A stretch of 64,000 nt of DNA from Enterobacteria phage GEC-3S. The stretch is taken from the sequence record HE978309. The stretch is one strand, 5' to 3'. This document shows positions 1 to 28,599 of this stretch, one piece after another. The stretch's first letter is position 1, and each line of letters starts with the position of its first letter. A program made the position numbers and the translations under genes. The notes under the pieces were generated by a model. The model made no database searches, was not told the DNA's origin, and saw nothing but the letters and a program-made list of their open reading frames with translations.

Positions 1-237
1 CCAAAACCACACACCGGAACAGCCAATAGGGGATTCTTTTAACGTCATAGAGTCGTAACCACTGCCGATAATAGTAATTTCTCTAACATCACCATCATCG
101 TCAATGTCTTCTACCCTAAACGGGCGACCAGCCAACAGGTCAACAATACATCTGTTAATAGACGACGAAAATTTAGTCAGTTCGGCTTTCGACGCTTCGC
201 ATTCAATCTTGTAAGTTTTACCAACTTCCCATTCCAT
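1..237 (-). CDS. hypothetical protein, N-terminal part only (gene runs off the window start)
   Basis: ATG at 235-237 preceded by GAGGTG; frame stays open to position 1; not in the ORF track because no stop lies in the window. Confidence 0.4.
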   Translation of the reverse strand, partial: MEWEVGKTYKIECEASKAELTKFSSSINRCIVDLLAGRPFRVEDIDDDGDVREITIIGSGYDSMTLKESPIGCSGVWFW

Positions 238-4070: not shown

Positions 4071-4565
4071 TTATTTTACCAGTTCTGCTAATTCTTTTTC
4101 TTTAGCTTCCAGTTCAGCCTTAAGCTGTTTAATCTCTTGTCGCTTCTTATTAGCGGCTTCTTGCTTACTATTTCGGATAACCTGATCTAGATACAACTCC
4201 CAATCCTGAATATTTTTGATAATATAACCGTCAACATTAATTGGTCGGATATTTAGTACAGCTTCCAGTTTAGTCGCAAAAACTTTAATTGCTGGGGTGA
4301 AGTATTCATATTCGTTATCTTCAAACCAATAACCTAGACTTGCATTATCAATACGAAGACGAAGTTCAAGATCAAGGTCTTTATCTTCGGTGTAAAGATC
4401 TTTCACCTGACCCAGCGAACTAACAACAACTTTAAAACGAATTTTATCTACACCACCAAACACATCAGTAAGTATACCAGCAATTGAGCTATTAGCGCAA
4501 GATTGGTCGCTGAATGCGTCAAGGTTTTCTTTAGTTACAGTATACCAAACATCTTGTACCCACAT
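4071..4565 (-). CDS. hypothetical protein (C-terminal coiled coil)
   Basis: track ORF; GAGGATTATATTATG leader. Confidence 0.6.
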   Translation of the reverse strand: MWVQDVWYTVTKENLDAFSDQSCANSSIAGILTDVFGGVDKIRFKVVVSSLGQVKDLYTEDKDLDLELRLRIDNASLGYWFEDNEYEYFTPAIKVFATKLEAVLNIRPINVDGYIIKNIQDWELYLDQVIRNSKQEAANKKRQEIKQLKAELEAKEKELAELVK

Positions 4566-4595
4566 AATATAATCCTCTCGTTGTTAAGTGGGAGT

Positions 4596-4623
4596 ATTAT
4601 AGCATACTCCCTTCGCATGTCAA
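4596..4623 (-). promoter_or_regulatory. sigma70-type early promoter (TTGACA, 16 bp, TATAAT) with -10 embedded in GGGAGTAT/ATACTCCC inverted repeat
   Basis: hexamers and 8-bp inverted repeat (4590-4611) read directly. Confidence 0.6.
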
Positions 4624-5798
4624 GCACTAACTTTTTTCTTTACTGCTTTCACCTTCTGGCGAATTGCTCGAATCTCTTCGATCTCTTTTTCAGTATCTTT
4701 AACAATTTCTTTGCGATTCTGAATATCTTTATCGAGATTATCATCAAGTTTAGGCAGCATGTCAATCAAGAACTTTTTAAGGTCTTTCAGGTTGCGAATA
4801 ACAGTACCTTCACCCATTACCGCCACGCCTACACCATCCGGCAGATCACCAAACAGTTTAACCAGTTCAGACAGATGATCATGATCTTCTAGTGCTTCTT
4901 CCGGTTCAGATGGCAGTTCAACAAAGTAATAACGTTCATCATTGCTGATCAGGTGATACCAGCAAAGCCCAAAAGATTTAGGAGTATATTCTACACCACC
5001 AACTTCAACTGCGTCAACACTTCCGAAAGAATCTACTTTAGTTACCTTAAATCCATGTTCCAGCGTTTTAATAATTTCAATAACATGACTGGATACGGTT
5101 TCAGTATTAAACCAATGAGGCAAATTATGTGGATTTGGCTTGTATCGTTCGCCTACTTTAAATCTCTGACCACGCTCTTGCATACGGACATATTCAACTC
5201 GCGTGATTTCCGCGAAGTATTCAAATTCGCTACCGTCAAACAAGCAATTCCATTGATCACAAAAACGATCCGCCTTGACGGTTTCACCTTTCGCGGTGAT
5301 CATGGTAGCTGATCCGTGCAATTCTTCTTCAACTAAAAAGCCATATTCTACAAAATCAACAAGTTTCATGGCTTCTTTGTGCTCTGGGTCATGCTCTCCC
5401 CAGAATCGCTTAAATTCTTGCAAACCTTCTGGGGTAAACGAATAACATTTACCTTTTTCAAAGTAAGTCGGCATTGCATCCTCTTTCTTGTTCATCGCTT
5501 CGTATGCCTCTTTTGAGATACGTTTAAAGTATTTGCGCTCATTGTGCATAATCATAGTAGCCCAATAATAAACGATATCCTCAGCGGAATAAACTACATC
5601 TCCAGCTTCAATAGTAATAACATGACCGTTGTCATCTTTTTCTAATACTTTAAAGCCCTTTTCTACGATTTCAGCAACCCGAATATGACCACGGCGCGAA
5701 GCATCGGTCAGAATAATTGAATAGCGAGAAAAGTCTAGAAACTCATCTTTACCACCTTCACGGAATGCATAGTAATGACCTTCAAAGAATTTAGCCAT
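4620..5798 (-). CDS. hypothetical protein, paralog family member with two internal GFKV-type repeats
   Basis: track ORF; shares NGFKVL...ERKYFKRI(S/T)K with the two downstream paralogs; GAGGATTATATTATG leader. Confidence 0.65.
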   Translation of the reverse strand: MAKFFEGHYYAFREGGKDEFLDFSRYSIILTDASRRGHIRVAEIVEKGFKVLEKDDNGHVITIEAGDVVYSAEDIVYYWATMIMHNERKYFKRISKEAYEAMNKKEDAMPTYFEKGKCYSFTPEGLQEFKRFWGEHDPEHKEAMKLVDFVEYGFLVEEELHGSATMITAKGETVKADRFCDQWNCLFDGSEFEYFAEITRVEYVRMQERGQRFKVGERYKPNPHNLPHWFNTETVSSHVIEIIKTLEHGFKVTKVDSFGSVDAVEVGGVEYTPKSFGLCWYHLISNDERYYFVELPSEPEEALEDHDHLSELVKLFGDLPDGVGVAVMGEGTVIRNLKDLKKFLIDMLPKLDDNLDKDIQNRKEIVKDTEKEIEEIRAIRQKVKAVKKKVSA

Positions 5799-5829
5799 AA
5801 TATAATCCTCTCGTTGTTTAGATGGGAGT

Positions 5830-5858
5830 ATCTTACTACTCCCGTTTCATCATGTCAA
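5830..5858 (-). promoter_or_regulatory. sigma70-type early promoter (TTGACA, 17 bp, TAAGAT) with GGGAGTAG/ACTCCC inverted repeat around the -10
   Basis: read directly; near-identical copy at 6740-6768 and 28571-28599. Confidence 0.55.
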
Positions 5859-6421
5859 GCGTTAAATGACTTTTGGATCTCTTTCAGTTCAGCTACTTTA
5901 TAGGCGCTGAATTTAGCGTAGGTATCATGTCGAATAATTTCACTTTCAAGAAAGGTTTCCAGCCGAGATCTATTTTCAATAAGGAACTCTTTCAGGTCTT
6001 CCGCGTTCTTGATAAAGATTTTATTGTCAGTAATGTCATCTTCAATCGCAAAGGAGATAGAGCGAACTTTACCAAACAAGTTAATCAGATCTTCCAGAGA
6101 TTCTTCTTTCTTAACTGGTTTCATTTCTTCAAACTGCTTTTTAGTGATGCGTTTAAAGTATTTGCGCTCGTTTGCAGCAATCAGAACAGATGCACCTTCA
6201 TACCCATGAGTTTCTACCAGATACACACGCCCCATCGCATCAACAGTGAGAACTTTAAAGCCGTTACAAAGCACGTCATACAAGAACTTATTATGTTGCG
6301 GACATCGTTTGATAAATTCTGCGGCTGTTTCTGCACTACGGAAAGTATAGTAACGACCTCGTTCAAAAACAGCATCATTTGAAGACTTAGCCGGATACAC
6401 TTTATACATTTTCTGTACCAT
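5855..6421 (-). CDS. hypothetical protein, paralog family member (one GFKV-type repeat)
   Basis: track ORF; start moved to the ATG behind GAGGATTATATT. Confidence 0.6.
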   Translation of the reverse strand: MVQKMYKVYPAKSSNDAVFERGRYYTFRSAETAAEFIKRCPQHNKFLYDVLCNGFKVLTVDAMGRVYLVETHGYEGASVLIAANERKYFKRITKKQFEEMKPVKKEESLEDLINLFGKVRSISFAIEDDITDNKIFIKNAEDLKEFLIENRSRLETFLESEIIRHDTYAKFSAYKVAELKEIQKSFNA

Positions 6422-6435
6422 AATATAATCCTCTA

Positions 6436-6708
6436 TCATTTCACTAATTGAACAGCACGAAACAGAATGCGGTCACACGGAAGCAGCATAAATTCCCAAC
6501 GCGGATCAAAGTCTTTAGCGGTATATGTTTTCCCATCAACCGAGATTTCACTTACATAACCAATAGGTGACACTTTAAGAACAGTAAATCCATTCTTGAT
6601 TGCTTCGTAGGTATCTTTCAGACCTTCGTAGTCGTCCTCTAAGAAGTCTTTATGTGCTTGCTCAGATTTAAAAACATAGGCCACACCGGATTTAAACATC
6701 TTACGCAT
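6436..6708 (-). CDS. hypothetical protein, short paralog family member
   Basis: track ORF begins with TTG; start moved to ATG behind AAGGAGAATCAACA. Confidence 0.55.
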   Translation of the reverse strand: MRKMFKSGVAYVFKSEQAHKDFLEDDYEGLKDTYEAIKNGFTVLKVSPIGYVSEISVDGKTYTAKDFDPRWEFMLLPCDRILFRAVQLVK

Positions 6709-6739
6709 TGTTGATTCTCCTTCTTGATTAGATGGGAGC

Positions 6740-6768
6740 ATTTTACTACTCCCATTTCTTATTGTCAA
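6740..6768 (-). promoter_or_regulatory. sigma70-type early promoter (TTGACA, 17 bp, TAAAAT) with GGGAG/CTCCC inverted repeat around the -10
   Basis: read directly. Confidence 0.55.
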
Positions 6769-6771
6769 CTA

Positions 6772-7552: not shown

Positions 7553-8308
7553 TTATACCTCATTCAGTTCTATATCAAGTTCATTTTCAATAATATAGGC
7601 ATTAACTGCCCGTGCCGCATCATCTTCTGTGTCAAATCTTCCTATATACACACCGCGAACTTTAGCACCGTAATTACCTTGTTTTGGTACTTTGTAAACG
7701 TATCTATGACGGGAACTTGCTGCTTTTTGGAGCTTCTTGCCATATTCAGACTTTGCATATTCTATATCATCAATCTCGTTTATACAAGACCTATCACCAA
7801 AATGTTTCAACGCTGCAAGATTATATGCATACGCCGCACCGATCTCGGAGGGAAAATATCCTAAATGTATAGACTTCCCATCCAACATTATTGCACCAGT
7901 CCAATAACCTTTATTCTTATTAAACGACACACCTTTATACTTCGAATATGTTTTGCATTTGGTCTTGCTCATATTCATATTATTTTGTTTGCTTGTCGTC
8001 TCTCTAAGGTTTTCAATGCGGCTATTATAACGATCTCGGTCTTTATGATCTATATACTTAGGACAATGACCATGAAACATATGATAGATAACACGGTGCA
8101 TACGTTCGTATCGCTCGCCAGTCCATACAATACGATACCCATCGGGGGTATCACTTCCAGCTAATCCGTTTATAACACCTTTTCGGTGCGGGTGAATCTT
8201 CCACCTAAGAAAACCATCATCATAATAAAACCGTGAATGATATAAATCATATAAACGTTTATCTTCTGGAGTCTTGTGTATAACCTCATATTTTAACATT
8301 GGTGACAT
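7553..8308 (-). CDS. HNH homing endonuclease with two AP2-type DNA-binding domains (Mob-like)
   Basis: HNH core IDHKDRDRYNSRIENLRETT; AP2-like YKGVSF...GAAYAYN and GAKVRG...EDDAARAVN; paralog of the ORF at 35956-36696. Confidence 0.8.
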   Translation of the reverse strand: MSPMLKYEVIHKTPEDKRLYDLYHSRFYYDDGFLRWKIHPHRKGVINGLAGSDTPDGYRIVWTGERYERMHRVIYHMFHGHCPKYIDHKDRDRYNSRIENLRETTSKQNNMNMSKTKCKTYSKYKGVSFNKNKGYWTGAIMLDGKSIHLGYFPSEIGAAYAYNLAALKHFGDRSCINEIDDIEYAKSEYGKKLQKAASSRHRYVYKVPKQGNYGAKVRGVYIGRFDTEDDAARAVNAYIIENELDIELNEV

Positions 8309-28570: not shown

Positions 28571-28599
28571 ATCTTACTACCCCCGTTTCATGTTGTCAA
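28571..28599 (-). promoter_or_regulatory. sigma70-type early promoter (TTGACA, 17 bp, TAAGAT) with GGGGGTAG/ACCCCC inverted repeat around the -10
   Basis: read directly; near-copy of the promoter at 5830-5858. Confidence 0.55.

Follow-up and report, generated by a model that had tools for sequence, protein, structure and literature searches.

The recurrence of one protein module in consecutive minus-strand genes of a coliphage, several of them behind look-alike promoters, raises the questions of what the module is, how its copies arose, and what the proteins might do for the phage. We addressed these using a 64,000-nucleotide stretch of Enterobacteria phage GEC-3S (record HE978309), hereafter called the window. 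From sequence comparison, the genome belongs to Krischvirus, the RB49-like T4-type coliphages, and the window is 99% identical to the Krischvirus phage MIZ6.

Genes and modules of the locus

The original prediction described three consecutive genes of 392, 188, and 90 amino acids (aa), and their coordinates on the minus strand were confirmed. Gene C (6436-6708, minus strand; 90 aa) encodes a single GoF/Frd.2-type barrel module without a C-terminal domain. Gene B (5855-6421, minus strand; 188 aa counted from the ATG at 6421) combines a barrel at about residues 13-104 (6110-6385) with a helical C-terminal domain (residues 105-188; 5858-6109). Gene A (4620-5798, minus strand; 392 aa) has three tandem barrel modules, A1 (5475-5798; residues 1-108), A2 (5175-5474; residues 109-208), and A3 (4899-5174; residues 209-300), and ends in a helical/coiled-coil domain (4623-4898) homologous to the C-terminal domain of B. 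To these we add gene D (4071-4565, minus strand; 164 aa), a divergent fourth paralog with an N-terminal barrel (residues ~1-90) and a charged C-terminal helix. We thus assign six modules to four adjacent genes: one each to C, B, and D and three to A.

The module common to C, B, and A spans ~90 aa and is detected by BLASTP at 5e-12 to 1e-6. A and B match over two separate segments (5e-12 and 2e-08), B and C match at 7e-07, and A and C match at 1e-06. An HMM built from out-of-window sequences only recovered A (3e-35), C (5.5e-18), B (1.2e-10), and also D (7e-08). The proposed sharing of motifs among the three genes is therefore far above chance. One detail did not carry over: the ERKYFKRI(S/T)K motif is found in A1 and B only, with C reading CDRILFRAV at that place. 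The largest gene had been credited with two copies of the module, but pairwise BLASTP within A (A1-A3, 2e-09; A1-A2, 7e-06; A2-A3, 2e-03) and three HMM domains give three. The ~90-aa C-terminal domain common to A and B by BLASTP is also present in metagenomic relatives.

D scored 27 bits (7e-08) against the module HMM, compared to a maximum of 10.9 bits in 2,000 shuffles. It is further joined to A2 by a 28-nucleotide (nt) DNA repeat (86%) over the E(Y/F)EYF motif, and phrog_3710 matches A as well as D. The C-terminal region of D showed no significant similarity to the IKN.(E/Q)D...(F/Y)L domain of A and B (E, 0.15 to 0.24). At the left end of the window, a partial minus-strand gene beginning MEWEVGKTYK (1-237) encodes the N-terminal part of another family member (HMM, 4.5e-11 and 8e-10), cut by the window's edge. 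This gene is the first of a second family cluster downstream of nrdG; MIZ6 has its full-length 175-aa ortholog plus three more members, and these paralogs (at least four) are packed 1 to 12 nt apart. The first description, a family of tandem paralogs with a repeated module as its building block, was hence correct but understated, with D and the second cluster beyond the left end to be added. An open reading frame (ORF) at 24771-25103 was rejected as a member, with only a weak module-HMM score (E, 0.012 to 0.041).

The similarity could in principle be due to chance or low complexity, with the ORFs not being real genes. Pairwise protein identity is indeed low (23 to 37%), and nothing else points this way. 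The E values to 5e-12, the outside-only HMM, and the shuffle control for D rule it out, as does the selection on the genes: compared to phage JK32, dN/dS is 0.18 to 0.36 for the locus genes (0.21 for C), and values below 0.4 imply that C, B, A, and D are real genes. The locus genes are conserved across 57 phage records, and the order C-B-A-D is retained in at least 55 records. The probability left for this explanation is negligible.

Family membership and fold

[quoted passage not shown] 2025, PMC12152347). An HMM built from the window modules only aligned T4 GoF end to end (residues 3-95; 20.5 bits, 1.9e-07) and found T4 Frd.2 at 3e-04, while the link to MotB.1 was weak (13.9 bits). BLASTP against T4 proteins matched B to GoF (6.5e-05) and A3 to Frd.2 (8e-06). 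Among the PHROG matches of the locus proteins are two families named "goF," 8944 and 13003, with phrog_8944 matching A at 5.6e-210; C matches phrog_16115. The RB49 orthologs of C, B, and A are RB49p060 (annotated as hypothetical), RB49p059 (RefSeq label "goF"), and RB49p058 ("frd.2 / goF mRNA metabolism modulator"). The locus had been called one of unknown function. [quoted passage not shown]

Other searches returned less. The locus proteins had no match above threshold in Pfam or NCBIfam, and weak matches to RecT, LYR, HALZ, and L23 were sub-threshold and taken as chance. T4 gp49.2 and gp49.3, neighbors of T4 gene 49, were unrelated by HMM searches. With the window-only alignment as the query, a word-indexed search for homologs returned Krischvirus relatives only. 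An exhaustive HMMER scan gave 16 representatives, a set that includes the spurious repeat proteins P0031, P0034, P0037, and P0040.

For the fold, an AlphaFold2 model of B (pLDDT, 85.9) gave a strand-helix-helix-four-strand arrangement (strands 24-27, 55-60, 66-70, 77-81, and 89-92) followed by helices (109-187), i.e., the barrel-plus-helices architecture. In this model, the module is a five-stranded beta-barrel of the SH3-like (FeoA-like) type, and strand 1 is followed by an insert of two helices. The fold was modeled for B and assigned to A, C, and D through homology; single-sequence AlphaFold2 of A reached a pLDDT of 40. In a viral structure library, the B model matched phage VR7 GoF and dozens of T4-like phage proteins. 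No relative turned up when the PDB was searched by sequence, and Foldseek against the PDB found no match at an E value below 0.1. In structure comparison, the nearest solved folds were FeoA-type SH3-like barrels; FeoA and the C-terminal SH3-like domains of IdeR/DtxR are among the closest known systems. The module resembles Hfq/Sm (LSm) proteins in being a small five-stranded bent barrel and in that the only phenotype of the GoF family touches mRNA stability (PMC12152347). However, in the Sm/LSm fold proper an N-terminal helix precedes five bent strands, whereas the helix of the window module comes after strand 1; by this arrangement and by structural match to Hfq/Sm proteins, the module falls outside that fold.

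Taken together, we consider it very likely that the module is the N-terminal domain of the GoF/Frd.2 family and, jointly, that the upstream cassettes described below are correctly assigned. The locus proteins share with GoF and Frd.2 a homologous ~90-aa barrel of the same predicted topology, with FeoA as the nearest solved fold in both, as well as a linker that leads into a variable C-terminal domain, and, like them, they are encoded by T4-type phages behind sigma-70-type early promoters. They differ in having up to three barrels per chain (A) or a barrel without any other domain (C), in the distinct helical C-terminal domain of A and B, and in that four members adjoin, with a second cluster past nrdG. 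They also depart from the Frd.2 branch in not reaching the Pfam FRD2 model (PF03197), with no match for A, B, C, or D at E values up to 1; this model is matched by 3 of the 18 aligned modules.

Promoter cassettes and the origin of the cluster

Each gene copy was originally thought to have its own near-identical promoter. Similar cassettes do lie upstream of C, A, and also D, but they are only 72 to 83% identical, and B has none. The cassette upstream of C (6709-6771, minus strand) has the -35 box TTGACA (6768-6763), a 17-nt spacer, the -10 box TAAAAT ending at 6740, and the stem-loop GGGAGTAGTAAAATGCTCCC (6753-6734), which overlaps the -10 box; the Shine-Dalgarno sequence GGAG and the ATG at 6708 follow. 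Upstream of A (5799-5860, minus strand) are TTGACA (5858-5853), TAAGAT ending at 5830, and the stem-loop GGGAGTAGTAAGATACTCCC (5843-5824). The cassette upstream of D (4566-4625, minus strand) consists of TTGACA (4623-4618), a 16-nt spacer, a TG-extended -10 box TATAAT ending at 4596, and the stem-loop GGGAGTATGCTATAATACTCCC (4611-4590). The box pairs TTGACA/TATAAT (D), TTGACA/TAAGAT (A), and TTGACA/TAAAAT (C) correspond to the sigma-70 consensus with 16- to 18-nt spacers, consistent with early expression. The three stems have 7 to 9 bp, overlap the -10 box, and fold at -11.9 to -13.8 kcal/mol with z scores of -2.9 to -3.9 (C, -13.8 kcal/mol and -3.9; A, -2.9; D, -3.0). No T-run follows the stems of the C, A, or D cassettes.

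Promoter-early stem-loop (PeSL) cassettes were described in RB49 and phi1 (Arbiol et al. 2010, PMC2839356) and are known from other T4-like phages too (Comeau et al. 2014, PMC4122927); promoter and terminator activity has been demonstrated experimentally for other PeSLs (PMC2839356). By their sequence features, the cassettes upstream of C, A, and D are PeSLs of the RB49/phi1 type. They join a consensus sigma-70 promoter to a stem-loop over the -10 box, a common PeSL subclass; they are intergenic, between the upstream stop codon and the downstream Shine-Dalgarno sequence and start; they lie in a hyperplastic region beside nrdD and recur before unrelated ORFs; and the D cassette sits at the border of a swapped gene allele, being 100% identical in JK32 when the gene downstream is 64% identical. 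Approximately 12 comparable cassettes, 54 to 82% identical among themselves, precede other ORFs of the window, and those ORFs gave no significant module-HMM match. Compared to these, which have GGGGG...CCCCC or other stems, the locus cassettes have a GGGAG...CTCCC stem and otherwise do not differ in anything essential.

The PeSL cassettes would drive early transcription as C plus B, A, and D (with nrdD), and their stem-loops may attenuate read-through from upstream, as inferred from PMC2839356. B lacks a -35/-10/stem-loop cassette upstream and starts 14 nt past the stop codon of C. Since its Shine-Dalgarno sequence, AGAGGA, directly follows that stop codon, B is probably cotranscribed with C.

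How the copies arose is a related matter. In the original prediction, complete promoter-plus-gene units were duplicated in tandem, hence the near-identical promoters. The exact pattern TTGACA...GGGAG...CTCCC does occur three times in the 64 kb, all at the C-B-A-D locus. A and D have a 5' leader and Shine-Dalgarno sequence in common (AACAACGAGAGGATTATATT), with their cassettes 83% identical overall and 96% identical over this 26-nt stretch, and the same Shine-Dalgarno/start context upstream of B (GAGGATTATATTATG) could be the relic of a lost cassette. However, B has neither promoter nor stem-loop, and the 1- to 12-nt gaps in the neighboring cluster leave no space for a cassette. The A and C cassettes are 72% identical and those of D and C 74%, while cassettes of other ORFs are as similar (74 to 78% overall): that of p28599 is 74 to 76% and that of p20737 is 74% identical to those of A and C. 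The C cassette is nearer to p28599 (76%) and p20737 (74%) than to that of A, and neither ORF has a module match. Moreover, the best cassette pair, that of A and D, couples A with its most divergent paralog. With the cassettes 72 to 83% identical and the proteins about 25 to 35% identical, homogenization or exchange must be acting on the cassettes separately from the genes, as described for PeSLs (PMC2839356). Duplication of whole units is thus unsupported, and we consider it improbable.

We propose instead a gene cluster in a hyperplastic region of an RB49-like T4-type phage, where the family would have grown by gene duplication and by module duplication within genes. Diversity would be maintained by the swapping of module alleles among related phages through recombination. 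In comparison with JK32, the divergent patches are limited to the modules of B, A3, and D, with dS of 0.34 to 1.1 versus 0.03 to 0.13 in the flanks; the module of D has 48% aa identity, versus 99% for the flanking genes. We rejected in situ positive selection as the source of these patches, given that dS is raised there as well and dN/dS stays under 0.45 (0.13 to 0.42).

Possible roles of the barrel modules

By analogy to T4 GoF, C, B, A, and D are probably abundant, dispensable early proteins. They may affect mRNA stability posttranscriptionally, either as RNA binders or through a bound host factor involved in the turnover of RNA or protein. The GoF(D25Y) variant stabilizes gene 41 mRNA posttranscriptionally, while wild-type GoF has no clear RNA effect and deletions are without phenotype (PMC12152347). 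At the GoF residue G84, site of the G84R suppressor, 10 of the 18 aligned modules have K or R; this is the lysine position of NERKYF. The position of D25 is R in B. Basic residues thus occur naturally at positions of the GoF suppressor mutations, with B carrying R and K there. B also has the sole basic module (pI 9.3), making it the best candidate for RNA binding. An RNA-related mechanism is, in our view, a tentative proposal. The overall explanation, a GoF/Frd.2 cluster with PeSLs and an RNA-related role, is one that we favor with reservation, as it blends the high confidence in family and cassettes with this tentative component.

Rather than RNA binders, the modules could be adaptor or inhibitor barrels that bind host proteins (proteases, Rho, the degradosome, or defense systems) and have diversified in an arms race. 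We judge this unlikely, although several observations would suit it. SH3-like, Tudor, and FeoA barrels from the structure match list are typically protein-interaction domains. With a net charge of -18 for A and -7 for D, and with acidic modules in the majority, protein binding suits these better than RNA binding. Module alleles are swapped, with D strongly divergent, and the locus lies in a hyperplastic region and appears to be early and dispensable. By profile-profile comparison (hhalign), the whole module (77 columns) matches the N-terminal half of T4 Pin (PF10465), a Lon protease inhibitor, with a probability of 49% and an E value of 1.7e-04. However, this is a borderline match, and Pin was not found at significance with plain HMMs (E, 0.12 to 0.57). 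The swapped patches are under purifying, not positive, selection, and the family's only known phenotype concerns mRNA level. Furthermore, the text on the GoF pull-down gives GoF monomer and an apparent dimer as the two dominant bands and names no partner there, with further proteins scoring above 10 in its Table S3 (PMC12152347).

The helical C-terminal domain of A and B may mediate oligomerization. An A dimer formed through the long C-terminal helix, or A together with B, C, and D, would bring six Sm/SH3-like barrels into a pseudohexameric Hfq-like platform made from tandem repeats instead of six subunits. We regard this as a long shot; published AlphaFold3 multimer models of GoF were not confident (PMC12152347). 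If true, such a platform could serve as a phage RNA chaperone or decoy that reprograms early mRNA stability, with swappable barrels setting target specificity.

Returning to the GoF/Frd.2 reading, the locus is a larger paralog family than first described, yet it is not a new type of system. T4-type phages make many abundant early proteins of obscure purpose, those of the GoF/Frd.2 type included. RB49-like phages have much expanded this family, with no fewer than 8 genes and 11 barrels around nrdD/nrdG. Used as a repeatable module, the barrel occurs one to three times per chain. Its alleles pass from phage to phage, whereas the C-terminal domains and PeSL cassettes stay near-identical. The locus extends the current picture and does not alter it, and its natural variants with basic residues at the T4 GoF gain-of-function sites are handy test cases for RNA binding.

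Module content of the C-B-A-D locus

The three genes of the original prediction were found on the minus strand: A (4620-5798, 392 aa), B (5855-6421, 188 aa), and C (6436-6708, 90 aa). They share a barrel module of about 90 aa. The start codon of B at 6421 was chosen because its Shine-Dalgarno/start context, GAGGATTATATTATG, is identical to that of A and of the adjacent gene D (4071-4565, minus strand, 164 aa). The order on this strand is nrdC-like gene, gene 49 (endonuclease VII; Pfam, 1e-15), C, B, A, D, and nrdD, and gene order and sizes are the same in RB49 and the more distant phage JK32. The 3.3-kb region has counterparts of 90 to 99% identity in 57 records of Krischvirus, the genus of RB49-like T4-type coliphages, the closest being phage MIZ6 (99%). 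Between the nrdC-like gene and dam lies a 251-aa ORF (7553-8308, minus strand) that was not found in MIZ6, RB49, or JK32; in those three phages, dam is the next gene after nrdC. From its location, the ORF may be an inserted mobile gene, perhaps a candidate homing endonuclease.

Pairwise BLASTP upheld the claim of shared segments (A-B, 5e-12 and 2e-08; B-C, 7e-07; A-C, 1e-06), and judged by these E values the similarity is far above chance. A had been thought to hold the module twice. When A was split into parts, three modules were seen, A1 (residues 1 to 108), A2 (109 to 208), and A3 (209 to 300), which match one another at 2e-09 to 2e-03 and which an HMM search recovered as three full-length domains. 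Over 18 diverse module copies, the signature reads [FW]-x-x-G-x-x-Y ... F ... F-[KT]-V ... G-x-V ... G ... E-x-x-[YF]-F. A second homology, between A (residues ~300 to 392) and B (~105 to 188), defines a common C-terminal domain that is also present in metagenomic relatives. The original prediction thus described something real but incomplete, and its interpretation was right in part.

An HMM built from five window modules missed D (E 2.3). A broader HMM found D at 7e-08 with the entire module covered, as did an HMM without any window sequence, and D scored 27 bits, whereas 2,000 shuffled versions of D reached no more than 10.9 bits. D and A2 have in common a 28-nt DNA repeat (86%) at the E(Y/F)EYF motif, and PHROG 3710 matches A and D alike. 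By these comparisons, D is a fourth paralog. The ORF at 1-237 (minus strand, MEWEVGKTYK...), truncated by the left end of the window, is a further family member (HMM, 4.5e-11). Its equivalent in MIZ6 (sequence L001, 1-2242) heads at least four further members (at least three besides the ORF itself). This second cluster adjoins nrdG, just downstream, and includes a 274-aa two-barrel protein; its members are spaced 1 to 12 nt apart in MIZ6, leaving no space between them for promoter-early stem-loop (PeSL) cassettes. A 111-aa ORF at 24771-25103 (minus strand) gave a weak barrel-HMM score (E 0.012 to 0.041); it may belong to the family as a highly diverged copy, or the score may have arisen by chance.

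Family and fold assignment

The window-only HMM aligned T4 GoF end to end (residues 3 to 95, 20.5 bits) and T4 Frd.2 as well, and BLASTP linked B to GoF (6.5e-05) and A3 to Frd.2 (8e-06). PHROG 8944 (“goF mRNA metabolism modulator”) matched both A (5.6e-210) and B (6.9e-98). In the RB49 RefSeq record, the ortholog of A already carries the name “frd.2 / goF mRNA metabolism modulator” and that of B the name “goF”; those of C and D are “hypothetical.” We are therefore confident that the proteins of this locus belong to the GoF/Frd.2 family.

We classify the predicted module fold as SH3-like (FeoA-like). The nearest solved relatives of the GoF-family barrel are FeoA-type SH3 domains (Kim et al., PMC12152347). 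An AlphaFold2 model of B from a 60-sequence alignment (pLDDT 85.9) has strand 1, two helices, four strands, and then a helical C-terminal domain whose last helix spans 37 residues. Membership in the Sm fold proper was tested, and the module did not qualify for it. Foldseek gave no significant match in the PDB; a viral structure library returned GoF from phage VR7 along with some 50 uncharacterized proteins, mostly from T4-like phages with many hosts. Several of these are 225 to 274 aa long and so possibly multimodule.

PeSL cassettes and probable exchange of barrel alleles

C, A, and D are each preceded by a consensus sigma-70 promoter (upC, upA, and upD) with its -10 box inside a 7- to 9-bp stem-loop, GGGAG...CTCCC, and these stems are more stable than those of shuffled sequences (z, -2.9 to -3.9). 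From these motifs, they are PeSL cassettes as described in RB49 and phi1. Such genomes carry about 50 PeSLs each, enriched in hyperplastic regions; some have demonstrated promoter and terminator activity, and they serve as modular recombination sites (PMC2839356; PMC4122927). The proposal that each copy has its own promoter holds for C and A and fails for B, where no promoter/stem-loop cassette was found and the Shine-Dalgarno directly follows the C stop codon. About 12 more cassettes in the window precede ORFs without a module-HMM match (28599, 20737, 26787, 26094, 11398, 10722, and others on the minus strand; 43014 on the plus strand), several with near-identical leaders (ATCGAAACGAAACACACTTTCT...). 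Identity is 83% for upA-upD, 74% for upD-upC, and 72% for upA-upC, and, for cassettes elsewhere in the window, at 28599 and 20737, it is 76% for upC-p28599, 74% for upA-p28599, and 74% for upC-p20737. Promoter similarity thus does not track paralogy, and the proposed duplication of whole promoter-gene units would be a minor part at best. We consider the assignment to the GoF/Frd.2 family and of the cassettes as PeSLs very probable.

Compared to JK32, A, B, C, and D have dN/dS of 0.18 to 0.36, indicating purifying selection, but under looser constraint than gene 49 and nrdD (0.02 to 0.04). Divergence is sharply patchy and limited to the barrels of B (6167-6367, residues 19 to 86; 76% aa identity, dS 0.98), A3 (4967-5267; 76%, dS 0.34), and D (4270-4566; 48%, dS 1.1). 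Nucleotide identity there is 62 to 86%; the C-terminal domains, PeSLs, and flanking genes are 96 to 100% identical (dS 0.03 to 0.13). High dS with dN/dS below 0.45 disfavors in situ positive selection and points to recombinational exchange of barrel alleles at the module level. The D patch starts at the start codon, directly after a 100% conserved PeSL, as expected from PeSL-mediated shuffling. A1 and B also have a 53-nt direct repeat (5491-5543 and 6120-6172; 77% identity, with 23 identical bases across ERKYFKRI). Since the proteins are only ~33% identical overall, this hints at a gene-conversion patch.

The GoF/Frd.2 barrel family and PeSL cassettes are both already described, and RB49 orthologs were labeled before. 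To our knowledge, the triple-barrel architecture of A, the family membership of C and D, the size of the expansion in Krischvirus, and barrel-level allele swapping are new. The single paper located that names two or more of Frd.2, MotB.1, and GoF mentions neither RB49 nor protein paralogs and uses “tandem” only for a reporter assay.

Possible roles of the barrel proteins

Beyond the anatomy, homology, predicted fold, and promoter motifs of the locus, which the analysis shows, early transcription would proceed as C+B, A, and D(+nrdD), with the stem-loops attenuating read-through. The C-terminal helices may drive oligomerization; GoF and MotB.1 run partly as dimers (PMC12152347). The family's sole functional handle is genetic. 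T4 grows on rho mutants with GoF D25Y and G84R, and GoF(D25Y) stabilizes gene 41 mRNA posttranscriptionally; wild-type GoF and MotB.1 have little effect, and deletions are without phenotype (PMC12152347). In our alignment, K or R occupies the column of GoF G84 in 10 of the 18 modules (the K of NERKYF), and an R of B aligns with GoF D25, in a column bordering an indel. The only basic barrel is that of B (pI 9.3), and A is strongly acidic (net charge -18).

Our best guess is that the locus proteins are abundant, dispensable early modulators that act on the fate of mRNA, B being the strongest candidate for RNA binding; our confidence in the RNA-related mechanism is low. The main alternative would have the barrels binding host proteins. 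In favor of this is a borderline profile-profile match between the module and the N-terminal half of Pin, the Lon inhibitor of T4 (probability 49%, E 1.7e-04, 77 columns), a lead and not a result. The pin gene (T4 sequence L003, 4898-5383) adjoins gene 49 in T4, and the match, if true, would give the barrel family a protein-inhibitor precedent.
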